Program-made: the position numbers and the translations under genes | DNA from: Naegleria gruberi | Taxonomy: Eukaryota | Strand: one strand, 5' to 3' | Assembly: GCA_000004985.1 (NCBI GenBank) | Contig: GG738852.1 | Length of the DNA stretch: 64,000 nucleotides | Shown here: positions 16,137 to 63,004 of the stretch, in pieces | Position numbering within the stretch: position 1 is the first letter of the stretch | How the letters are laid out: each line of letters opens with the position of its first letter | Notes under the pieces: model-generated | Seen by the model: only the letters and a program-made list of their open reading frames with translations | The model's database searches: none | What the model was told of the DNA's origin: nothing

Positions 16137-17034
<898 letters not shown>

Positions 17035-22906: not shown

Positions 22907-23817
22907 TTATACATTTACAACAGTTGTTCCTGTAGCACCAGTTGTAACAACAGTGATACCACCACTTGGTCCTCCCTTATTTCCTCTCTTTGTTGTATAG
23001 ATTACCAAAGCTGCAATTGCAATGCATGATAAACAACAACAAGCAATAATACCAATAATGACACCAATGGCAATTCCTGTTGCATCTGGTGGAGTTGCTT
23101 CCTTAACATTTCTTGAAGGAGTATCTGAACTAGTGGTTGATTCCAAATAGCCATCCAAATAGCATTTGGAAGTTTCAGAGGTTAATGTGATTGTGAATAA
23201 TTCATCAATATTTGAAGGAGCTACCAAGGAAACTGGTTTGTCTTGGCCCAAAAGACTTAACAATCCCACTTCGAAAGTAAAGAAGTTTCCCTCAGATGTC
23301 TTGATCTTTAGTTTGCCACCTGCAGCAACATGAACAGTTCCAGTATATTTCATTCCCTTTGGAACAAGCATTTTATAGGAACCAGAGCTAGGAATGTCGT
23401 TAGTTCTAGATGTTGCAACTAGATTGTTGATGGAGGAAGGTAAATCAGTTGAAGATTTGTCCTTAAATTCCATAGTAATAACAGTGGAGCAAATATCTAA
23501 TAGGTCTTTTCTCTGAAGTGTGAAAATGTCTCCATCTTTGTCAGGAATTAATTCTAATTCGAGTAATTTATCTGTAACTTGAATGGTCTTGAAGGTTTCT
23601 CCATTTCTAAGAACCAAAATGTTGCAAATAAAAGGGGTTGAACTATGGTCAAGTTAGCCTTCATATTACTTTGAAAAGGAACTGATGAAATAGATTTATA
23701 ATCCCCTCCAAACGTAAAGTACCTTTTGCCAGCTCCAAAATTAACATCACACACAATAAATTCGCTAATCATTAAGGTTGCTGTTAAGGCAAGCAAAAAT
23801 AGTAAGGAAGCTTTCAT
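22907..23817 (-). CDS. Type I membrane protein (signal peptide, Ser/Thr-rich ectodomain, single TM, short tail); probably 2 exons
   Basis: Exon 1 encodes the signal peptide MKASLLFLLALTATLMISEF... A likely GT intron (~80 nt, donor after ...GAGK, acceptor ...catag near 23641) joins it to the frame of ORF 22907..23617. That exon carries the ectodomain, a TM helix (IAIGVIIGIIACCCLSCIAIAALVIY) and a Gly-rich tail. The exact junction is not certain. Confidence 0.45.
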
Positions 23818-23903
23818 GTTGAAGTTGTTGAAGTATTTGTTTTGTTTTCAATATATTCAAAATTATTTTGTTCTCTGGCTTTTTAAACCTTTTGCATCCT
23901 TTG

Positions 23904-23915: not shown

Positions 23916-24403
23916 GTTTGTCAACGAACGCATTTATGCACTTTTAAAGACAGAGTTTACAACTGTAAATCGAGTGCCCTCCATTACAACGTAAAGTGTT
24001 TGTCGTAAATAGTATTGTTCCTGTAATGAGGTGAGTGTTACGATTACTGAGGAAGAGAATTAAATACGAATTGTGCATATGTGCCTGTTGTGTAAAACCA
24101 AGCATAAGTTGACACTTCATGCATTGTTGTACGATATTTTGATCATTCAATATACACATCTCAAAGCAATTACTTACCATTCACATCGACAATATTAAAT
24201 TGGTGTCAGATCCGGCTACAGGTTATTGATGGCAATCTTAATGAGAACCTATTCTCAAGAAATTTCAATGTCCTCCTATTTTTAATTAACTTGTTTGCAT
24301 TCTTATTGAATTAAAACAATTTTTGTCAATTTCCTTGAAATGATAATATTAATACATTTGAAGGGAAGTTGTAAATTATGTATTGTGTGAACATCCAATA
24401 ACA

Positions 24404-26242
24404 ATGTCCAAAAAAAACCCAAAAAAAATGTCAAGCATTGCCACAACTGTGCATCTTGTGGATTTCCATCCAACACTCACATGCAATCACCTTCATCTCT
24501 TCCGACAATTCATGATGCAAACTCAATCACGCAAAAGTACTTTCCTCCGACTTCGAACAGATGCATTATTACTGGGTGGTTATCATTTACGCACTCTCCG
24601 TATATTGTTGAGTCAAGTAGAAGATGAGTTTCGAAAAGAGTTATTGGATGATGAACAAGTCATGTCAAAATATGTTGATTTTGATGGTAGATTGTATTTT
24701 TGGGCAAGTGATAGATTGAAAGATGATTTTAATTTCATTAAGAGAGCTGTTCAACAGAATGGAATGTTAATATTAAGCATTAATGAAGGACATTTATCAA
24801 GAGATTTGATGATGACAGCAGTTCAAGAGGATGGTTTGGCAATTAAAGCTGGTTTTGATTCAGATTTGGAAATTTGTAGACAAGCTGTCAAAAGCAATGG
24901 ACTGGCATTTGATTATATAAGCGGAGACATGGTAAATAATGAGATTGCTAACTTGGCTTTTGATGATAATCCATTTGATGACCGTTGTTCTTACCTAATT
25001 ACAGATGAACATGTTCGAAATAAGGTGGCTCTCCATTGTGGAATTTTGACAAATGACGTTGGGTCAAATTTTAGAAAGGAAATAATTGAAGAGGTTTTAA
25101 AAATTAGTCCATTCTCCCAACATTATTTATACCAGTTTAATAATCTGTCTGAGGATGAAATATTTGATTTGACTAAAATAGCCATTCAATATGCTGGTGA
25201 TGTGGACGAAATAATTCGTCTCGACGATTTCACAATCGAACAATGTGAAGAATTGGTAAAATATGAAGGAAATATTCTTGGTTTAATTGAGGATGAAGAT
25301 CAAACAAGAGAAATGATTCAAAGTGCTGTGAGAAATTGTGGAACATCTCTGAATTTTGCCAATAAGGAACTTGTTGATGATGAAATTATACTGGATGCAA
25401 TCAAACAAGATCCACAAGCTATTCAATTCACTAAATATGATAGTAATTTCATATTGGATCGTGTGAGAGAGAATGGAGAGGTTCTGGCTCATATTCATGA
25501 AGAGCAACAATTTGGAGAGGACAGAGAAATAGTATTGGCTGCTGTGAGTAATTATGGAATGGCACTGGGGTATGCCTCTGGAGAATTACAAGATGATGAG
25601 GAAATTGTAATGGCAGCAGTTTCAAATTGTGGAGTGGCTTTGGAATTTGCCGATAATCGATTGAGAGGTAGACCAGATTTTGTTCTCAAGGCAGTTTCTG
25701 AGAATGGTCTTGCATTAGAATTTGCCCTTATTCAAAACGAGGAAATTGTAACAACTGCTCTCAATCAATGCGTATTTGCCTTCTCTTTTGTTGAGCCACA
25801 ATGGGTTACTAAGGAAATTGCTATTATGGCAATTAAAAGATGCCCTTATTTGTTCAAAGAGGAAAATATGCTCCACGTTCGTGATAGAGAGGTGACACTT
25901 TGTGCAGTAGCAGGTTTTGGAGGAAATTTGCAATTTGCAGCAGATGAATTCAAGTCTGATTCAGAAGTTGTAATGATTGCTGTGTCAAATTGTGGATCGA
26001 CACTGAGTGAGGCAGATGAAGATTTGCAGGATGATTACGAAATAGTCAAGGCAGCTATAATGAACAATCCATCAAGTCTGGATTTTGCATCCGATAGACT
26101 CAAATTAGATTGGTCACTCCTCAGACTTTATAAAGAATTGCAAGATGCTGACCTTTTCATTCTCAATTCATGGGAAGATGAGTTTGGCTCCACTTTGAAA
26201 CGATACAGAGAGGAGGAAGATGACTTGTTAGAAGGAAGATGA
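24404..26242 (+). CDS. DUF4116-like repeat protein (~613 aa)
   Basis: Ten or more tandem ~30-35 aa repeats of the form (D/N)xE(I/V)V(M/L)xAVxxNGxAL(E/Q)FA (e.g. EIVMAAVSNCGVALEFADNRLRGRPDFVLKAVSENGLALEFA). This is the pattern I associate with Pfam DUF4116. The first in-frame ATG is at 24404; the ORF-track start at 24383 is TTG. Confidence 0.6.
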   Translation: MSKKNPKKMSSIATTVHLVDFHPTLTCNHLHLFRQFMMQTQSRKSTFLRLRTDALLLGGYHLRTLRILLSQVEDEFRKELLDDEQVMSKYVDFDGRLYFWASDRLKDDFNFIKRAVQQNGMLILSINEGHLSRDLMMTAVQEDGLAIKAGFDSDLEICRQAVKSNGLAFDYISGDMVNNEIANLAFDDNPFDDRCSYLITDEHVRNKVALHCGILTNDVGSNFRKEIIEEVLKISPFSQHYLYQFNNLSEDEIFDLTKIAIQYAGDVDEIIRLDDFTIEQCEELVKYEGNILGLIEDEDQTREMIQSAVRNCGTSLNFANKELVDDEIILDAIKQDPQAIQFTKYDSNFILDRVRENGEVLAHIHEEQQFGEDREIVLAAVSNYGMALGYASGELQDDEEIVMAAVSNCGVALEFADNRLRGRPDFVLKAVSENGLALEFALIQNEEIVTTALNQCVFAFSFVEPQWVTKEIAIMAIKRCPYLFKEENMLHVRDREVTLCAVAGFGGNLQFAADEFKSDSEVVMIAVSNCGSTLSEADEDLQDDYEIVKAAIMNNPSSLDFASDRLKLDWSLLRLYKELQDADLFILNSWEDEFGSTLKRYREEEDDLLEGR

Positions 26243-41659: not shown

Positions 41660-42771
41660 ATGACTGAAAATCCACCTCTCATCATTGATAATGGTTCCTC
41701 TCTCATGAAAGCTGGTTTATCTGATGATGATGCTCCATGTGCAGTCTTTCCCACAGTTACTGGACGACAAAAAGTTTCCACCCTCATGGTTGGAATGAAT
41801 AACATTGACAAGACGTTCGTTGGAGATAATACATTTGGACTCAGGAGAGGTATAAATGTGTTCTATTATCCAATTGATCGTGGATTGATTACTGACTGGG
41901 ATCAAATGGAAAAGATATGGGATTACATATTTAATTCTGAATTAAGAGTTGCTCCAGAGTATCATGAAGTATTATTGTTAGAAATTCCATTAAATCCAAT
42001 GGAAACTAAAGAGAAAATGTCACAAAGCATGTTTGAAACTTTTAGGGTGAGAAGTTTGTGTTTGGCAAATCAATGTGCCATGTCAATGTTTGCAAGTGGT
42101 AGAATGACAGGTATAGTGTTGGAATCAGGCGATGGTGTTACCAATTCAGTGCCTATTTATGAAGGATACGCACTGTCACATGCCACTATCAGAGTTGAAT
42201 TAGGAGGTAAAGATCTGACAGATTATTTGAGGAAAATCTTAATGGAACGAGGATATAATTTCACCACAAAGCATGAAACTGAAATAGTAAGGTATATGAA
42301 AGAAAAAACTGGTTGTGTTGCTAGTAACTTTTTGGAAGAAACAATATCAGAAATTCCTTATGAATTACCGGATGGAAATATAATTCACTTGGAATAGAAA
42401 GATACAAAACTACTGAGATATTATTTCAACCAAATCTTGTTGGAATGGAGGTTGGTGGAATTCATGAAAATATTTTCACTTCTATTAGAAAGTCTGATTT
42501 AGATATTAGAAAGGAATTGTATTCGAATATTTTTCTTTCGGGAGGATCGACATTGTTCAATGGAATAGTAGAACGATTGTATAATGAATTGAGGGAATTA
42601 TCTCCCTCCTCAATGAACATTCGAATAACAGCACCACCAGAAAGAAAGTACACTGCATGGATTGGTGGTAGTATTTTCTCCAAATTATCAACCTTCCAAT
42701 CGATGTGCATAACCTTAGAGGAATATGAAGAGAGTGGATACAATATAATTCATAGAAAGGGCATCTTTTGA
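41660..42771 (+). CDS. Divergent actin / actin-like protein gene interrupted by a 1-bp frameshift (possible pseudogene or sequence error)
   Basis: Two ORF-track pieces (41660..42397 and 42445..42771) are collinear with actin: DNGSSLMKAGLSDDDAPCAVFPTV, WDQMEKIWDYIFNSELRVAPEYHEVLLLEIPLNP, IVLESGDGVTNSVPIYEGYALSHA, YELPDGNIIHL // GIERYKTTEILFQPNLVGMEVGGIHE, APPERKYTAWIGGSIFSKLSTFQSMCITLEEYEESGYNIIHRKGIF. The reading frame shifts by -1 at the GG at 42391-42392. Restoring one G gives ...IIHLGIERYK, which matches actin ...VITIGNERFR. Confidence 0.65.
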
Positions 42772-46356: not shown

Positions 46357-48581
46357 ATGTCAGGAGATAATGAAGGGTTTATTGAAACCCTACTAATCAA
46401 TCTCTTCACAATACCAATAACAACAATAGCATCATCATTCCCTCATCACCATCACCAACAATATTCAACTAATCATGTCATGACCATAATGGCAAACGAA
46501 ACCTTTCCAACAATACTCAATAATAGTCAAACAAGTAATTCTACTTCCAATCGAACGGATTGTTCTCCCATTCTCTTCAACCTAGGCAAATGGAGTACTG
46601 AGAAGGAACCAAAGTTTGAATTTGGTTTATGTCCAGATTCAATCATCACTCCAATATTTTCATCAATTTTCCTTGCTCTCTTTCTTGGAATTTGTTTAAT
46701 TTCACTGATGGGAATGATATGGAAGAGAAGGAATGGATTTATACATGCAAGAAATCCAATTTACATGTTCATGACTATTGTGGCTGCATTGATATTCATT
46801 GGAGGTAATGGATTGCGATTCATGATTGGACGAAAGCTATTTCCCTGTGCAATTTATACTGTACTGTTTTTTGTATTGCCTCCACTTGTGAGTTTACCAA
46901 CAATTTTGAGATGTTTGAGATTGTTTTTCATGTGAGTTTTAATTGTTTAATATTATTAATATTATTTAATTAATATTTTGGTTTATTAATGTTTTTTTCT
47001 GGAATGTTTATTGTTACTGGATGGATTAATAATAGGTATAAATTGAATTTACAAAAAACTAAATTATTCGAATTGAAGAATATGGGAAAATCGAATCAAG
47101 CTATTCAAACAGGAGAAAATGTAAATTCACAAATTCAATCATTTGAAATGAATGTAACAAATAGTCAAAATAATTCATCATTAGGAGTTGTGGATTCGAA
47201 TAGTAATAGCTTAACTATTTCATCAAGTGAAAAACAAATTTATGGAAATGAGGATTTAATTCACAGAAGGTCAAACATTACCGAAATTATCAATAATACC
47301 AATCCTAGTACTACCATTGATCCAGAGAAGGCCATTGAACTCAATGCTAAGAGTATTGATATCAAGACAGCTGGAGTTTCACCAATTTTGAAATCTGTCG
47401 ATAATCCAAACGGAAATGTGGATTTTTCAACATCTCATTATTCGAATGGATCTTCAACAATGGAAAACATGTCTCAACAAGATCTGGTTGATTCCTCTCC
47501 AAGACTTTTCAAAAACAATGACAATTTATTTGATGTAGATGTTACAGAAACAGATGATAGTGATTCGTATTCAGATATTGACAGTCGATCCACTTGGGCA
47601 TTTAGAGATTTATCTGATTTACAATCAGAAGTTAGAAGGTTTCAAATATTTACCTTCATGTCAAGTTACAAGTTTGTTCTCATTCTCTATTCTACATTTG
47701 TCATTTTCCAAATAGCTTTGTGGTTAATTTTGGGAGGTGTTGAGGAAGCTCTCTTCTCCAACTCACTAAGTCATACTGGTGAGAGAATCTTTCTTTTGGA
47801 AGGTGGAATGCTTGTTTTTGATAGAGGATGTTCAATGAGCACCAAGATGGTCCTCATCATTGCAGGAGAATCAGTTATTTACATTATTTTTGAAATTGTA
47901 GCACTGATATTATGTATCAGATCAGACAGAGACACATGGAGTGTGAAAAAAGAGGCCATTCTCATTATCATCTTTCAAGTTATAGCAATAATTGCATTTG
48001 TAGTGACTGGTTTAATTGATGAAATTGTTACATTGACAGATTACTTTATTCCATATGGGTATTCACTCATGACCTTTTCACTTGTTGAAGTTTTCACTAC
48101 TGTGCTATTGCCAGTTGTGTATGCAATAGTGAGTGAGTATAGGAATTTAAGGAGAATGGATACAGAGTTTGACTCTGAGTTGGAACAAGTTCTACGTAAT
48201 AGAAAATCATTCAATAAGATGTTGGACTTTGCACGTCGAAGTTATGCACCTGAGAGTGTGTTGTGCTATCGAGATATTCAGAGATTTAAAAAGTTGAGAG
48301 CTAACAATCGAAGAAAGATGGCTCATCACATTGTAAATTCATATCTAACGAGTGGATCTCCTTTGGAATTGAATATTGACAATATTATAATAAGAAAAAA
48401 GGAATTTTCTGATAGGGTTTCTAATACCAATGAAAAGCTTCCAAGAGACATGTTCAATCAGATCCAAGACCATTGTTTGGTTGATATGAGAGACATTTTT
48501 GATCGTCTGAGATCTTCTGATAAGGAGATTTACCAAATGATACAAGATTGGAGGATGAAGCAATCAAAATTAATTAACTGA
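46357..48581 (+). CDS. 7TM receptor-like protein with C-terminal RGS domain (7TM-RGS), paralog A, 2 exons
   Basis: Exons are 46357..46931 and 47036..48581. The intron runs gtgagt at 46932 to AG at 47035 (104 nt). Splicing restores ...LRCLRLFFM/YKLNLQKTKLFEL, collinear with the intronless paralog C (...AYFMYKINLQKTKLFE). It has an extracellular Cys pair (CSPILFNLGKW...GLCPD), 7 TM helices with a long Asp/Ser-rich loop after TM3, and an RGS domain (FNKMLDFARRSYAPESVLCYRDIQRFKK...AHHIVNSYLTSGSPLELNI...IQDHCLVDM..FDRL). Confidence 0.7.
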
Positions 48582-51237: not shown

Positions 51238-53177
51238 TTACTGTGTAGAATTTGTTGATTGAACTGAATTGTTCAAAGATTTGAGTTCTTTGACAATGTC
51301 ACCAATTTGCTTGTTGGAGCTCTTCAATCTTTCGAATAGATCTGTCATGTCGTTAAGGCAATGATCTTGGATGAGTGCAAACAAATTGTGTGAAATATTT
51401 GGATTTTCCTCAATTAACTTTTCAATTTCACTCCTCCTTTCTTCAATTTTGCTAATATTCAATTCTAGTGGAGCACCAGCAGTAAGGTAAGCCTTCAAAA
51501 TGTGAGTGGCTGCCTTCTTTCTGTTTGCCTTTCTTGCCTTTTTAAATCTCTGTATATCTCTCCAACACAAAACGCTCTCAGTGCAATAACTTCTTCTTGC
51601 AAAGTCAAGTAAGATTTGATAGGTCTTTTTGTTTTTCAAAACCTTCTCAATTCCTGTTTCTTTCACAGCTTGTTTCCTTTCAGTGTCATTGTTGGATTGT
51701 GAGAGCTTGCTCTTTCTGTCGCTGATAAAGGCATACATGGCAGGCATTCCAACACACATAATAATTTCAATCAGCTCATAAATCCATAACGCCAATCCAG
51801 TTGGAACCAAATAGTCCAATAACTTTTCTGTAATATCCAACATGCCAACAACTATAAAAATGATGGCAGCTCCAACCTGAACAATGATTAGAAGGAGTGT
51901 TTCTCTCTTAATTCCCCATGTATCTCTATCAGCCATAACTGCCAAGATGAGGAATACCAATTCTAAGAAGATGTAGACCAGTGCATGGACACCAACAATC
52001 AAGACTGTTGTAGTAGTGAGACCACAACCTCTTTCAAAGACAAACAGACCACCATCAAAGAGGAATAATCTCTTTTTGTTTGGATCTGTACTTGCATTAT
52101 AAGTCACCTCCTCAACAATTCCTAAAACTACCCAAATTATAACTCCAACAAGGAATGCAATGGCATAGGTGGAAAGGATAAACTTTTTGCTGATGAAAAA
52201 GTTCAGAATGGCCAATTGTTTAACTTGTTTTTTAACATCACTAACTTCCTTAAATTCACTCATATTCCAAGTTGAAACGTCAGCTTGTGATTCAGAATCT
52301 CCATCAGTTGTTGAATCATCCCAATTTGGAGGATCGAGTCCAATATCCTCATAATTGTTAGGATCAAAGTTGTTAACCACCTTGTGAATTTGTTCTTGCC
52401 TTCCTGCCATGTCTTCCAATCCAAATATTTTAGAGTCTGATTTTTTCAATTCCACCTCAGTTTGTTCCTTTAGCTGGTTAATTGGTACAATGCCATTCGG
52501 GTTTGTCACTGATGTAGCACCAACAGTGCTGTCTTTTGCTGAAACATCAAAAAGTTTCATCTTTAAAAGATTAATCTTGTACATGAGATAAATTCTCAAC
52601 ATTCTGAAAACTGTCGGTAGCATTACAGCTGGAGGTAATGTAAAGAAACTAAAAGTAATTATACCACAAGGGAATATCTTTCGTCCGATGATTATTCTCA
52701 ATGTTAATCCAACAACAAATACGAAACCAGCACATAAAGTCATGTACAATGATGTGGGATCTCTTGCCATAATATGTCCACTCTTCCTCTTAAATATCAC
52801 TCCTGTTGTTGTCAAAAAGAAATGTCAACAAACAATTTAAAACAATAAATTATTGAAACTTTACCAATTGCACTGAAAATAACACTTATTATATAAACAA
52901 TCACAAAGGTCAACACCAAAGCAAAACTAATATAAGTATCAGGACACAGCCCATAATCAATTGTGCCATTATTTCCCTCCCGAGACCATCCTCCCAAGTT
53001 GAATAATATAGGATCACATGCAAAAGCACTACTATTAGTTGAATTCAATAATCCAATGAATGGACTTGTATCATTTAAAATTCCTCTTCCAATCATCCAC
53101 CCATTGATATTCTCCCGAAGGAACACCTCCAGAGCATCTTCCATTAATCCAAAGTGTGTGGGTTGACTTGCTGGCAT
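51238..53177 (-). CDS. 7TM-RGS receptor-like protein, paralog B, 2 exons
   Basis: Minus-strand exons are 52865..53177 and 51238..52802. The intron runs gtaaag (revcomp of 52863-64) to cag (revcomp ending 52803), 62 nt. The splice joins ...FSAIG to GVIFKRKSGHIMARDPTSLY..., collinear with paralog C (LTGVGVFWKRKSSHVEARSPIY). Same extracellular Cys pair (CDPILFNLGGW...GLCPD), 7 TM and C-terminal RGS domain (YQILLDFARRSYCTESVLCWRDIQRFKKARKANRKKAATHILKAYLTAGAPLELNI). Confidence 0.7.
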
Positions 53178-54390: not shown

Positions 54391-56391
54391 TCAAACTTGA
54401 TCTGAAAATGTTACCGTTGGATTCATCAACGTTAACGTAGATGTGGAATTTACAAGATTGGAACTTGTTGCGGAGGTATCTAACTTGCTTTCAGTATAGG
54501 TAGATGCTTTTTTGTAATTCTTTACAAAATCTGAGATTACATTATTAGAATTTTTCAATCTATCAAACAAATCTGCCATGTCATTCAAACAATGGTCCTG
54601 CACAGCTTTGAAAATATCAGTTGGAATTTTGCCATTGGTTGATTCTATTTGCTTCACTTGTTCAAGAATTTCGGCACTTTTGAAGGTAATCTTTGGCATG
54701 TTAAGTTCTAATGGAGCACCAACGGTCATGTAAGCATTGACAATGTGGTTTACTGCCTTTTTCCTCTGACTTCTCTTTGCCTTCTTGAATCTTTGAATAT
54801 CTCTCCAACACAAGACACTCTCAGTGCAGTAACTTCTTCTAGCAAATTCGAGTACAATTTTGAACATTTTACGATTTTTGAGAACCTTCTCTAAGCCACT
54901 TTCAGATTCGGTATTTTTGGCTAGTTTCTTGTCAAATATTATGGAACGAATGACTGGAATAGTGACACACACAATTACTTCAATGAACATGTACCCCCAC
55001 AAAATGAAACCATATGGGAAATAGGCATCTGTAACAGATGCGATGAAATCAATATTAGCAGCAACTACAAACAAAATAGCACTAGTTAATTGAATAACAA
55101 TCAAAATCATAGTCTCCCTCTTAATTCCCCAAGAGTCTCTGTCTGCTGTAAAGGCAAATATTAAAAATACCAATTCCAAGAGAATGAACAAGATTGATTC
55201 TACAGAAATCATAATGGTAGTTGTAGTATTCATACCACAACCGTGTGAAAATAGAAGAATACCACCCTCATTCAAGAATATTCTCTTCTTGTTTGGATCT
55301 GTACTTGTATTGTAAATTGCTTCCTCAGCAACACCAACAATAAGCCAAATAATTACACCAAATAAGAAGGAAAGAATGTAAATCACAGTAATGAATTTGA
55401 CACTGATTAGGAAATTGAAAATTTTCAACTTTCTCAATTCTTTTTGCACATCTGCCAAATCCTTATATTCACTCATATTCCAAGTTGAAACGTCTGCTTG
55501 TGAATCATTATCAGTATCAAAATTACTTTCATCATCATCATCTGTAACAGTATTTGAAGTAGTTCCATTAATGGAATCAAGTTGAGGTTCATATTCATGA
55601 TTTTTTGCAATTACTCTAGAGAGACGTTCTTGTCTTTTCACTATACCATCCTCTTGTCCAAAGAATTGTTGTTGTTGGGTTCCACTTTGAGTTTCAATTG
55701 TAAAATTATCAATTGCTTGTTTCAATTCAATATTACCTGAAGTGTTATCACCTCCTGTATTTGTAGTACTGGTATTTTGTAAATTAGTCGGTGATTCGAA
55801 TAGTTTAGTTTTCTGTAAATTAATCTTGTACATGAAATATGCTCTCATTAATCTGAAAATAGTAGGTAATGTCACAGCTGCAGGAAATGTGAAAAAGCAA
55901 ATAGTTAACAAACCACAAGGGAATAACCTTCTCGAGATGACAATTCTCAAAGTCATTCCCACAATGAAAAAGAAAGCAGCACATAAAGTAAAGGCGAGAT
56001 AGATTGGACTTCTCGCTTCGACGTGACTGGACTTTCTCTTCCAGAAAACACCTACACCTGTCAATAATACAGTAATTATATATACAATCATAAATGCTAG
56101 ACATGTGGCAAAGGCAAAATAGGTATCATTGCAGAGACCGTATTGAGATGTAACGTTCATTTCACGAATCCATGGCGTACCGATGAGAGAGGAATCACAA
56201 ACTTTAGTATTATTGGTGGTGAAATTTAATGTTGAATTATCTGAAAGCATGGAGAATGGTTCCATTAATGAATGTTGAAAATATGAATTAATCAGGAGAG
56301 CTGCGATATTGTTGGATGGTGTGATGGCATATTGTTCAAAGAAAGGAGAGAGTTGCTGACTGTTGGCAACTTGAAATTGTTGCAGAGACAT
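54391..56391 (-). CDS. 7TM-RGS receptor-like protein, paralog C (intronless, 666 aa)
   Basis: Single ORF with ATG start. N-terminal ectodomain with sequons and a Cys pair, 7 TM helices (TM1 FATCLAFMIVYIITVLLTGVGVF ... TM7 YFPYGFILWGYMFIEVIVCVTIPVI) with a long acidic loop after TM3, and a C-terminal RGS domain (FKIVLEFARRSYCTESVLCWRDIQRFKKAKRSQRKKAVNHIVNAYMTVGAPLELNM). Confidence 0.75.
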   Translation of the reverse strand: MSLQQFQVANSQQLSPFFEQYAITPSNNIAALLINSYFQHSLMEPFSMLSDNSTLNFTTNNTKVCDSSLIGTPWIREMNVTSQYGLCNDTYFAFATCLAFMIVYIITVLLTGVGVFWKRKSSHVEARSPIYLAFTLCAAFFFIVGMTLRIVISRRLFPCGLLTICFFTFPAAVTLPTIFRLMRAYFMYKINLQKTKLFESPTNLQNTSTTNTGGDNTSGNIELKQAIDNFTIETQSGTQQQQFFGQEDGIVKRQERLSRVIAKNHEYEPQLDSINGTTSNTVTDDDDESNFDTDNDSQADVSTWNMSEYKDLADVQKELRKLKIFNFLISVKFITVIYILSFLFGVIIWLIVGVAEEAIYNTSTDPNKKRIFLNEGGILLFSHGCGMNTTTTIMISVESILFILLELVFLIFAFTADRDSWGIKRETMILIVIQLTSAILFVVAANIDFIASVTDAYFPYGFILWGYMFIEVIVCVTIPVIRSIIFDKKLAKNTESESGLEKVLKNRKMFKIVLEFARRSYCTESVLCWRDIQRFKKAKRSQRKKAVNHIVNAYMTVGAPLELNMPKITFKSAEILEQVKQIESTNGKIPTDIFKAVQDHCLNDMADLFDRLKNSNNVISDFVKNYKKASTYTESKLDTSATSSNLVNSTSTLTLMNPTVTFSDQV

Positions 56392-59427: not shown

Positions 59428-60615
59428 ATGGATCTCTACATTCCTTCTGATTTAAACAATTGTGATGATGATTTTTGTGACGAAATGTTGCCAGTTGAAG
59501 AAAAATTAGAAAGAAGAATGGATGAATTGACAATTTTAGATGGTGATGCATTTGTCTCAAACACAACAAGCAATTCTCAAACAACAGGTGCTTGGATTCG
59601 TGCTAAACATTTGGAAGAAGAAGGTTATGATCAAGAATTGGTTGACCACAGTGAAAATTTTGTCGATTTGGTTATTGTAATGGATTGTACTGGATCAATG
59701 TCTGGTGAAATTGAAGTTGCCAAACGAACTGTAACTACTATCATCTCAACACTTCATGAAAAGTTTCAATCTGATTTGAGATTTTCAGCTGTCAGTTATA
59801 GAGATCACACTGATGATTATGCAGTTAAGGAATTCCCATTTACAAAGGATTTGAATAAGGCAAAGGGTTATATCAATACAATGTCAGCTCAAGGTGGAGG
59901 TGATCATCCTGAAGCTTTGGCATCAGCTCTCTATGTCATTAATGAAATGCCATTTAATAAGAAGGGAAAGAAGATTGTTGTTTGGGTTGCTGATGCTCCT
60001 CCACATGGAATGAAAACATCATCTGATAGCTATCCAGAAGGATGTAAGGATCAACAAGGAAATGTCATTGATTGGATCAAATTGGGATCTGCTCTCCAGG
60101 AGAAGAATGTTGTCTTTTATGGAATTTTGTGTGAAAGAGCAAAGGATGATCAACAATTGACCTTGTTTATGGATTATTTGACAACTAAAACTGATGGTAA
60201 ATGTTTACTCTTAACAGATGCTAATAAGATACCAAATTTGGTGATTAATGGTTGTGTGGAAGATGAAGATATGGACAATCTTGTTGCAAAGAAAATTAAA
60301 GAATTGGGAGAAGAGAAGGTCAATAATTTGGGAATGGATGATTTACTTAAACTCATTCACAATGAAACATCCTCTGAAAAGGTTGCCCAAGTTAAAACCT
60401 TTGAAATTGCCTCAACCAGAACTAAGAATTTGATGAATTATTCAACCTTATCTGATATGCAATGTGATGATTATGTTTCAGCTCAGAATGTCATGACTAG
60501 AAATGATGATTGTGAGGCAGAGAGCGATTCTTTTGATGATTATGGAGGTGTTTACTACAAAGCACCAACTATGGAAAAGGTGGCAAAGGCCTATTCCAGA
60601 AATTTGAGAAAGTAA
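59428..60615 (+). CDS. von Willebrand factor type A (vWA) domain protein with acidic N-terminus
   Basis: vWA/MIDAS-like core: DLVIVMDCTGSMSGEIEVAKRTV...FSAVSYRDHTDDYAVKEF...GGGDHPEALASALYVINEMPFNKKGKKIVVWVADAPPHG. Resembles the vWA of alpha-kinase/copine-type proteins. Confidence 0.6.
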   Translation: MDLYIPSDLNNCDDDFCDEMLPVEEKLERRMDELTILDGDAFVSNTTSNSQTTGAWIRAKHLEEEGYDQELVDHSENFVDLVIVMDCTGSMSGEIEVAKRTVTTIISTLHEKFQSDLRFSAVSYRDHTDDYAVKEFPFTKDLNKAKGYINTMSAQGGGDHPEALASALYVINEMPFNKKGKKIVVWVADAPPHGMKTSSDSYPEGCKDQQGNVIDWIKLGSALQEKNVVFYGILCERAKDDQQLTLFMDYLTTKTDGKCLLLTDANKIPNLVINGCVEDEDMDNLVAKKIKELGEEKVNNLGMDDLLKLIHNETSSEKVAQVKTFEIASTRTKNLMNYSTLSDMQCDDYVSAQNVMTRNDDCEAESDSFDDYGGVYYKAPTMEKVAKAYSRNLRK

Positions 60616-60716
60616 TTTTGCATCTTTGTAAATAGTATGTAAATAAATAAATAGAATTTCGAGAATATTTATTAAACTATAGGATAGGCATTGATTTGCC
60701 TTTATAGAAATGGTTA

Positions 60717-61835
60717 TCATTTATTGGAATTTCTGAAAAAAGTAAATGTATCATTGAAAAAACGCAAAATCGATGGGATGATACTCCATCTTTGTTTTGT
60801 TATGTTATTTTCATCATTATTCTCAATTTTTGGAATGGAAATTATTTTGGAATTTTCAACTTGTTTCAATATGAAATGAATATTTTCATATTGAGATTGA
60901 ATTTGTTCCGAAGCAAATAAAATATTCATTTCATTTTCTTCCATTGCAATTTGTACAATTTCCACATCATTTCTCAATTCCAAATTTAGAAATTGTAATA
61001 AATGTCCTTGATGTTTCAATACAAGTTTGGCCAATTCTCTGTCTTGCTTCCATTCTTGAAAATTCATATAGAATTCTTTGAATTCATTACTATTCTTCAA
61101 TTCATTTCCATACTTTTCCTGAATATTTGTAAAATACTTTACAAGATTAATTTTCATTGTAATCTCGGGCTTACTGTATTTCAAAATATTGTAAACAGTG
61201 CACATATATTGAGGATATTTTTCTATAAGATCGAGTACTCGCTCATCCAATATATCTCCCTTGATATACCTAAATGGATCCTCTCCTTTTTCAATGCAAA
61301 TTTCCAATAGTTCAATATAATCTACAATATAATTCTTATCAATAAAATACAATTCACAATAATTCCTTTCCACACAATATTTGATAAATTCCCAATTTGA
61401 TTTTAGTTCACTTCCCACATACTGATAAATGCATCCACTATTATCATAAGTTTGTTCTAATAATTGTTTAATAAATTGAAAATTATTTAACAATTCCTCA
61501 TCCGCACCATCAATATTGTAAATTCTATATTTGGATGTATTCATTACTACTTGTGGATCTTTTCTAAATTCACTATTTGAAGGAAAATATCTCATTGGAA
61601 TTCCTTCACTTTTTTCAATCATTTTCAATATGAAGTTTCGTTCAAGTTTCAATGAAGTTTGCTCTAATGCACGGAAATATCTTCTACTGAGTGCCAATTC
61701 TACAACATCAATATCATCCTTCAAACCGTTAGAGGCATGATTAAAATTAAAGTTAAATTGTTTGATAAAATATAGAACTAGTCTCTTATTATTTTTTAGA
61801 GTTTCAGAGGCGTATTTTAAACCTTCTGGAAACAT
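60717..61835 (-). CDS. DUF4116-like repeat protein, downstream ORF (372 aa); probably the 3' part of one gene with 61838..63004
   Basis: The repeats (ELAKLVLKHQGHLLQFLNLELRNDVEIVQIAMEEN...) match the DUF4116-like pattern. Its ATG (revcomp 61833-61835) lies 2 nt after the TAA of the upstream ORF, in the +2 frame. Confidence 0.5.
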   Translation of the reverse strand: MFPEGLKYASETLKNNKRLVLYFIKQFNFNFNHASNGLKDDIDVVELALSRRYFRALEQTSLKLERNFILKMIEKSEGIPMRYFPSNSEFRKDPQVVMNTSKYRIYNIDGADEELLNNFQFIKQLLEQTYDNSGCIYQYVGSELKSNWEFIKYCVERNYCELYFIDKNYIVDYIELLEICIEKGEDPFRYIKGDILDERVLDLIEKYPQYMCTVYNILKYSKPEITMKINLVKYFTNIQEKYGNELKNSNEFKEFYMNFQEWKQDRELAKLVLKHQGHLLQFLNLELRNDVEIVQIAMEENEMNILFASEQIQSQYENIHFILKQVENSKIISIPKIENNDENNITKQRWSIIPSILRFFNDTFTFFRNSNK

Positions 61836-61837
61836 TT

Positions 61838-63004
61838 TTAATAGGTCAATATCATTTTCAATATATTTCCTATCAAAGAATTCAAGTGTTGAAACCCATT
61901 TAATCCTAATTTAATATATTGAATTAGTTCAATATTAAACTGGTCGTCTTGTTCAAATAGAGGATTAATATAGGCATAGTTGAATGCGTTACATTTACAA
62001 AACCACAAACTCATTTCTCTGTCATTGTAAAACTCATTGTAAACATAATTAAATGTTAAATTAGTCTCTTTTGCGCATTCTTTAATAAATTCTCTATTGA
62101 GCTTAATTTCATTATAGACGTGATCTATATTCTCTGGATTACATTTGATTGCAAATTGTTGAATATCAATACTGGTGTTATAGGGTAATATTAATGAAAG
62201 TGAGTTTCCACGTTGTAACATTGATTTTTGAAAGTTGATATTCTTTTTAATATCTTCTCCAAAATATTCGAATGGTAGTGATTCAACTTTTGGTTGTAAT
62301 TTAAATATTGATTCATCATTTCTTAATTCATATGGTAAATATGGAAATATTCTATAATTACTTTTCAAGACAATTTTGCAAAATTCCAAATTAGATTTTA
62401 AATTTTCAGATAAATATCTAAAGGATGTTTCTGAATTTTTAATTGAATTCAGTGCTATACCCTTGTTATTCTTAACGTCTTCATTTGTAACGTATTTCAT
62501 CAATGATCCATTTATAGAAAGTGCCATATTACACAATTCAAAGTCAGATCTCAATTCTTGTGATGCAAATTCAAATGCTTGAACATTACTTTGCAATGCT
62601 ATTTTAACTAATTCTCTATCATTTTGATAATTTGGAAAATATTTCAATAAATTTCCATTTCTAGAAAGTATAATTTTCATAATATTGCTGTTACTGGTCA
62701 ATAGTTTGGATTGATATTTAATTAATTGATAAGTTAACATATTAATATTGTAATCACTAGAATTTTTCAAACTTGTTTCAATTAACTCTTCATCATTTAA
62801 AATTTTATCATATTCACTCTCCGGAAATTTTTCATAATTGATCAATAATTCATCTCCATCTTTCTTTACAATTTCCAATCTTTCACTTTGAAGTGTATTT
62901 AAAGTGAATTTACTTGATGAAAAACGAGCCAATGATGATGAACTGAAGAGCTGTGGTTTTATCAATTTGTGTGTTAAAACACCAAGCTTGACAAGTTGTT
63001 TCAT
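61838..63004 (-). CDS. DUF4116-like repeat protein, upstream ORF (388 aa); probably the 5' part of one gene with 60717..61835
   Basis: ATG start at revcomp 63002-63004. Repeats: ELVKIALQSNVQAFEFASQELRSDFELCNMALSINGSLMKYV... A candidate 26-nt GT..AG micro-intron (plus 61870..61895) would fuse it in frame to the downstream ORF. Confidence 0.5.
   Translation of the reverse strand: MKQLVKLGVLTHKLIKPQLFSSSSLARFSSSKFTLNTLQSERLEIVKKDGDELLINYEKFPESEYDKILNDEELIETSLKNSSDYNINMLTYQLIKYQSKLLTSNSNIMKIILSRNGNLLKYFPNYQNDRELVKIALQSNVQAFEFASQELRSDFELCNMALSINGSLMKYVTNEDVKNNKGIALNSIKNSETSFRYLSENLKSNLEFCKIVLKSNYRIFPYLPYELRNDESIFKLQPKVESLPFEYFGEDIKKNINFQKSMLQRGNSLSLILPYNTSIDIQQFAIKCNPENIDHVYNEIKLNREFIKECAKETNLTFNYVYNEFYNDREMSLWFCKCNAFNYAYINPLFEQDDQFNIELIQYIKLGLNGFQHLNSLIGNILKMILTY

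Follow-up and report, generated by a model that had tools for sequence, protein, structure and literature searches.

A split DUF4116 repeat gene in Naegleria gruberi that is best explained by a single-base indel and not by a micro-intron

In the stretch of Naegleria gruberi DNA analysed here (64 kb, hereafter the window), two adjacent minus-strand ORFs, A and B, most probably make up one DUF4116 gene that is broken by a single-base indel. We infer that the split was caused by the loss of one base (or, equivalently, the gain of two) somewhere in the minus-strand interval from ~61896 to ~61858, in a single gene that would encode a DUF4116 helical-repeat protein of ~760 aa with ~25 aa per repeat unit. 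Frame A would then be read upstream of the indel and frame B downstream of it, while the TAA that closes ORF A (61840..61838) and the ATG that opens ORF B (61835) would be by-products of the shift and not the true end and start of genes. As for its origin, it is roughly equally likely that the indel is present in the amoeba DNA, the gene being then a pseudogene of very recent date or a defective allele in a family with redundant members, or that it is an error of the draft assembly. The window itself is gene-dense with 33% GC, and it encodes eukaryotic Med23, PRP38, MFAP1, RasGEF, RGS, and actin. The parts of the split locus are these:

63004..61838, minus strand: ORF A, 388 codons plus TAA (61840..61838), 5' half of the putative DUF4116 gene (PF13475, 117 bits)
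61835..60717, minus strand: ORF B, 372 codons plus stop, 3' half of the same putative gene (PF13475, 103 bits)
61841..61910, minus strand: zone of overlap between the open frames A and B, where the frame change has to fall
61858..61896, minus strand: likely indel stretch (putative placement), with short runs of GGG, TTT, TTT, and AAA inside

The layout is as the original prediction had described it, with the TAA of ORF A followed after two nucleotides (AA) by the ATG of ORF B at 61835, and with the frame of ORF B shifted by -1 (equivalently +2) relative to that of ORF A. The assignment of both ORFs to one repeat family likewise stands, as each has four stretches that match the Pfam DUF4116 model (PF13475), with scores of 117.1 bits for ORF A and 102.8 bits for ORF B against a cut-off of 24.9 bits. 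Throughout the gene, the DUF4116 units tile at ~25 aa. Moreover, frame B has no stop for 25 further codons on the 5' side of its ATG, as far as 61910. With respect to the repeat itself, frame A looks repeat-like up to ..IELIQYIKLGLNG (and still unit-like through ..FNIELIQYIKLGLNG), and frame B looks repeat-like from ..(K)YIENDIDLL on. ORF A and ORF B are most probably two halves of one DUF4116 gene and not two genes, a view supported by the public model described below and, with a weak score, by the placement of the ATG of ORF B inside a repeat unit. The last ~12-19 codons of ORF A (..(FQHLNS)LIGNILKMILTY, then the stop) are probably out-of-frame read-through past the indel, and the sequence around the ATG of ORF B (..ENDIDLLKMFPEG) suggests that this codon lies within repeat unit 11 and stands for an internal Met. 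ORF B remains a clean open frame over its 372 codons, and therefore the mutation, if real, would be very recent.

A protein search with the joined query found that the two ORFs are already spanned by one public N. gruberi NEG-M model, the 750-aa "predicted protein" XP_002680989.1 / EFC48245.1 (NAEGRDRAFT_64081). In fact, this model is obtained exactly from the window by cutting out 35 nt (61940..61906), from which it follows that the window is the NEG-M reference and that the same frame break is present in the reference assembly. The public model thus agrees with our reading, and with the original prediction, in joining both ORFs as one DUF4116 repeat protein, at the same locus and from the same DNA. 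It differs, however, in the segment by which the break is bridged, which in the original prediction was one of 26 nt. The two candidate segments are as follows:

61895..61870, minus strand: 26-nt GT..AG candidate of the original prediction (GTTTCAACACTTGAATTCTTTGATAG, GTTTCA..GATAG, 31% GC), judged a chance bridge
61940..61906, minus strand: 35-nt "intron" of XP_002680989.1 (GTTTAA..AATTAG), judged an annotation device over a frameshift

The next-best protein match to the joined query has 22% identity. The original prediction had proposed a comparison with orthologous DUF4116 genes, and since no orthologue closer than 22% identity was found in the databases searched, none is near enough to settle the junction. 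In a 15-billion-protein collection, neither ORF A nor ORF B nor the 753-aa product of the 26-nt splice has an exact match. Only the public 750-aa model is present there, in a cluster whose one member is the model itself and with no contig recorded for it, and the collection holds no transcript-derived copy of the DUF4116 protein. Neither a protein-pattern scan of metagenomes nor a scan for exact 32-mers turned up an orthologue or an environmental copy. RNA-seq of N. gruberi is on record under PRJEB23822 (cited in PMC6142364).

As a yardstick for splicing, we collected the introns of the window, taking those junctions at which adjacent same-strand ORFs must be joined and at which long open frames are restored by the joining (n=8). 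The first pointer to six of them came from a scan for the donor motif, though the ORF structure demands each one of the eight. By position, strand, length, and donor, they are the following:

9865, plus strand: intron of 74 nt, donor GTAAGT
10291, plus strand: intron of 47 nt, donor GTAGGT
29732, plus strand: intron of 219 nt, donor GTAAGT
46932, plus strand: intron of 104 nt, donor GTGAGT
52864, minus strand: intron of 62 nt, donor GTAAAG
57895, plus strand: intron of 116 nt, donor GTAAGT
58375, plus strand: intron of 58 nt, donor GTAAGT
58567, plus strand: intron of 53 nt, donor GTAAGT

These introns span 47-219 nt in length and 17-26% in GC content, and GTAAGT is the donor in five of them, with GTGAGT, GTAGGT, and GTAAAG found once each. 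All eight donors conform to GT[AG][AG][AG], whereas 14% of the GT dinucleotides across the whole window do so. For N. gruberi as a whole, published statistics give introns an average length of 203 bp and genes an average of 1.7 exons (PMC8296547, Table 2). A survey for a sub-30-nt intron class, as suggested with the original prediction, turned up no such class in this sample of the genome, as the eight introns supported within these 64 kb all have 47 nt or more, which likewise leaves a sub-40-nt class unseen among them. Genuine classes of micro-introns are found in Paramecium (~20-34 nt), Stentor (15-16 nt), and the nucleomorph of Bigelowiella natans (18-21 nt). The 26-nt candidate resembles these in its size class and its weak signals, and weak splice signals have indeed been remarked upon for micro-intron species (PMC3488318, reviewer comment). 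Unlike the N. gruberi candidate, though, the micro-introns of those organisms are genome-wide and their splicing is adapted to them, while the introns of our window measure 47-219 nt and carry strong GTAAGT-type donors.

Among the alternatives to an indel, a genuine micro-intron, whether of 26 or 35 nt, is altogether unlikely. The 26-nt version proposed originally, a spliceosomal intron at 61895..61870, is by itself very unlikely, though part of the claim holds: the segment exists, it has GT..AG ends and a length of 2 mod 3, and its excision yields a stop-free 753-aa product with the junction ...YIKLGLNG/KYIENDIDLLKMF... (that is, ..YIKLGLNG/KYIENDIDLL..). Its position is also exactly within the zone of the necessary frame change, and the intactness of ORF B for 372 codons is what a functional gene would show. 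What is not supported is its status as an intron. In its donor, GTTTCA, positions +3 and +4 are T and +5 is C, whereas purines occupy these positions in 8/8 introns of the window; the same extended donor pattern (purines at +3 to +5) is lacking in the GTTTAA of the 35-nt candidate. At 26 nt, the segment is about half as long as the shortest supported intron of the window (47 nt; n=8) and lies far from the published mean of 203 bp. Its GC content of 31% may be exon-like, being set against 29% for the surrounding sequence (60001-62000) and 17-26% for the introns, although 26 nt are too few for a firm judgement on composition. Moreover, its removal would leave repeat unit 11 at ~17 aa, without unit positions 1-5, and the public annotation picked another segment for the same purpose, which shows how arbitrary the choice is.

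We then considered how readily such bridges arise. A search for frame-restoring GT..AG segments no longer than 150 nt, whose donor lies at most 200 nt upstream of the TAA, returned bridges with the donors GTTTTA, GTGGTT, GTTTTG, GTTTAA, and GTTTCA, and within these limits no intron with a consensus donor joins the frames. The GTAAAT and GTAACG donors near the junction pair solely with ..AC ends. The more canonical 70-nt candidate ending in TTTCCAG, which had been set aside earlier for placing the downstream exon in the wrong phase, is indeed out of phase and missing from the list of frame-restoring segments. For a null expectation, 2061 random 1-nt deletions were simulated across 14 ORFs of the window that are intact, with a bridge defined as a stop-free GT..AG segment of 2 mod 3 in length. 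Here, 71% of the simulated deletions were bridged by a segment of up to 40 nt, and 94% by one of up to 80 nt. With chance alone supplying GT..AG ends and a frame-restoring length in 71% of frameshifts, the existence of the 26-nt bridge carries essentially no evidential weight. Accordingly, both the 26-nt and the 35-nt segments are judged to be chance GT..AG pairs that happen to mend the frame. The two explanations that had been offered beside the micro-intron, a genuine frameshift and a sequencing indel, account for the locus better than it does.

The repeat register across the junction was compared for the different ways of joining the frames. The unit starts anchored by the HMM are 71.5-87 nt per unit apart, with 6/10 of the intervals outside the junction being exactly 75 nt, and the four units over the junction extend for 308 nt. 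When one base is added, the spacing across the junction becomes 25.75 aa/unit, which is within the observed range, and unit 11 has ~26 aa. With the 26-nt cut, the corresponding spacing is 23.5 aa/unit, just below the observed range (unit 11, ~17 aa), and with the 35-nt cut it is 22.75 aa/unit (unit 11, ~14 aa). The spacing thus fits the unspliced sequence with one added base slightly better, a weak preference given that truncated units do occur in repeat proteins. When the repeat units of this gene were themselves made into a profile, NDIDLLKMFPE matched unit positions 10-20, with weak scores of 3.6-5.5 bits, and the Met of ORF B fell at position 17/25. Low as these scores are, they suggest that frame B is coding on the 5' side of the ORF B ATG, with the ND core of the unit in the same frame. 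The profile matches this core alone and gives no position for the indel. Family HMMs (one-unit and two-unit models from 20 homologues and the second DUF4116 gene of the window) gave all junction variants the same scores, ~182 and ~65.5 bits, the units at the junction being too divergent for these models. Structure prediction by AlphaFold2 of a 307-aa corrected segment, run without an alignment, gave a model with a mean pLDDT of 33.7 that is unusable.

That the annotated 35-nt intron (61940..61906) is real is also highly improbable. Besides its presence in the public gene model, the segment is AT-rich (14% GC by our own count), and its length is nearer to the 47-nt minimum than that of the 26-nt candidate. 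Against it, the GTTTAA donor is off consensus, and the cut takes out the helix of unit 10 (FNIELIQYIKLGLNG) and continues in the other frame with IKWVS.., with the contracted unit spacing over the junction given above. As mentioned, the 15-billion-protein collection holds no transcript-derived copy of the protein. The same annotation, moreover, demonstrably invented a 74-nt intron across the frameshift of an actin gene that lies in this very window:

41660..42771, plus strand: actin-family gene with a 1-nt frameshift at ~42392 (CACTTGGAATAG), 19 kb from the DUF4116 junction

In this gene, the first ORF covers Pfam Actin positions 3-272 and the second, in the -1 frame, positions 272-408, and since these abut at 272, no residues are missing between the two ORFs. 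Adding one G at CACTTG^GAATAG (~42392) gives ..SEIPYELPDGNIIHLGIERYKTTEILFQPN.. and restores ..PYELPDGNIIHLGIERYKTTEILFQPN.., which aligns without gaps to the closest paralogue NAEGRDRAFT_29917 (P0029) and to N. fowleri actin-1. The public 345-aa model NAEGRDRAFT_44350 (P0022) is instead reproduced exactly by cutting 42324..42397 (74 nt, donor GTAACT). This cut drops 25 actin residues, 15 of which are identical in the closest paralogue, and with them the YELPDG motif that is kept in N. fowleri actin. The 74-nt actin "intron" is therefore unambiguously fake, and the break is a frameshift of 1 nt. The two genes have in common the scaffold and the annotation, a -1 break in an otherwise intact gene, a GT..AG bridge, and a non-consensus donor; at both breaks, the downstream ORF is pristine. 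They differ in that the actin bridge is proven false by conservation, while that of the DUF4116 gene, which is without a close homologue, is judged false on the strength of its splice signals, its length, the null model, and the spacing of the repeats, and not from an alignment. By this precedent, the simplest explanation for the 35-nt intron in NAEGRDRAFT_64081 is the same, and the 26-nt proposal amounts to the same step taken by eye. As with the DUF4116 gene, the indel of the divergent actin paralogue would be either a very recent mutation in a redundant family or an assembly error. The hexamer CACTTG is found at either break, in the DUF4116 gene as in the actin gene.

The single-base indel was also weighed against readings in which both frames are used as they stand. 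It is scarcely credible that the locus makes two separately expressed products, either from two independent genes or through a dicistronic arrangement with termination and reinitiation (TAA-AA-ATG). The stop and the ATG are indeed just 2 nt apart, and each ORF is long and by itself above the Pfam threshold. There is, however, no intergenic room for a promoter, and eukaryotic ribosomes are not expected to reinitiate once they have translated an ORF of 388 codons. The open frame B upstream of the ATG for 25 codons, with the ND core of a unit there and the Met at unit position 17/25 (a weak score), together with a repeat register that appears continuous through the junction, also stands against two products.

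A broader proposal, that N. gruberi makes intact proteins from -1-broken genes by removing 26-35-nt non-consensus GT..AG segments or by recoding at CACTTG(G)AA-like sites, seems to us similarly far-fetched. For the actin gene, the break is not an intron, as the flanking residues match other actins without a gap. Were the proposal true, ORFs that look "frameshifted" but are otherwise pristine would be functional.

Programmed -1 ribosomal frameshifting, or some other recoding that joins frame A to frame B, is the least plausible of the readings. The direction of the shift is -1, a hairpin at 61877..61838 (UUGAUAGG..CCUAUUAA) folds somewhat better than shuffled sequences do (z = -2.1, with 7/200 shuffles as good), and the actin gene of the same window needs a -1 shift too and has the CACTTG hexamer in common with this site. 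Known sites of this kind combine a slippery heptamer (X XXY YYZ), read in the upstream frame, with a stable structure that follows 5-9 nt later. The DUF4116 site shares with them the direction and a weak downstream hairpin, but inspection by eye of frame A from 61915 to 61841 found no X XXY YYZ heptamer, and the structure signal is marginal for an AT-rich sequence and not significant. Cellular -1 frameshifting is, moreover, rare. Transcriptional slippage was considered as well and rejected, there being no A or T run longer than 5 bases.

On our preferred reading of a single-base indel, the DUF4116 locus is an ordinary one, with its ORFs already joined in the public model and no sign of new biology. 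To our reading, neither the 26-nt nor the 35-nt segment is an intron, and the NAEGRDRAFT_64081 model is due a frameshift or pseudogene flag. The actin model NAEGRDRAFT_44350 hides a single-base frame break behind an invented mini-intron, as this model most probably does too, which is a matter for curation, and surveys that rely on the annotation to find the shortest introns or non-canonical splice sites of Naegleria would count such false micro-introns. For a Sanger draft, two broken coding frames within 64 kb looks like a high number, and something systematic may lie behind them. If the indel in the DUF4116 gene is an assembly error, the cell would make the full-length repeat protein, and if it is real, the truncated 388-aa protein alone would be made. 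Taking both breaks together, assembly errors would mean that the reference needs polishing, while real indels would mean that N. gruberi carries very young pseudogenes in two expanded families.

The actin-family gene at 41660..42771 (+) is unambiguously split by a 1-nt frameshift, with the break placed at about 42386..42397. Here, the break sequence reads CACTTGGAATAG, and the addition of a single G regains ..HLGIERY... In the public model of this gene, NAEGRDRAFT_44350, the 74-nt intron (42324..42397) is fake and masks the frameshift, at the cost of 25 actin residues, including the YELPDG motif; 15 of these 25 residues are identical in the closest paralogue.

We also noticed the hexamer CACTTG in the frame-break zones of both this gene (42386..42391) and the split DUF4116 gene (61887..61882, (-)), and at each break the upstream frame divides it into the codons CAC TTG (CACTTGGAATAG for actin and CACTTGAATTC for DUF4116). 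This sharing is probably a coincidence. At the DUF4116 locus, an imperfect inverted repeat, UUGAUAGGAAAUAU..AUAUUGACCUAUUAA (61838..61877, (-)), extends to the stop codon (TAA) of ORF A, which is the 5' half of the gene; folding of the 131-nt region gave a marginal z of -2.1 relative to shuffles.

Three further features were considered.
24383..26242, (+): second DUF4116 gene, uninterrupted (267 bits, 7 stretches)
23826..23554 and 23653..22907, (-): third pair of ORFs on one strand between which the frame changes by -1, sharing 23554..23653
16665..16904, (+): exon resembling a ubiquitin-conjugating (E2) enzyme on visual inspection (15 protein letters not shown)

The second DUF4116 gene encodes 619 aa, as taken from the TTG-listed ORF, and because it sits in the same window, there are several local DUF4116 copies. 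In the third ORF pair, for which no Pfam match was found, the upstream member has a signal-peptide-like N-terminus (MKASLLFLLALTATLMISE..), and the candidate bridges have weak donors, such as GTAATA at 23669 (71 or 98 nt); either an intron or a frameshift could account for this frame change. The E2-like exon ends with a consensus GTAAGT donor at 16891 (+), for which no acceptor was placed; the 255-nt option yields non-E2 sequence.

Moreover, three RGS-domain genes of comparable size lie within 10 kb.
46989..48581, (+): RGS-domain gene
51238..52815, (-): RGS-domain gene
54391..56391, (-): RGS-domain gene

The domain lies close to the C-terminus in all three, and these genes are a local paralogue cluster.
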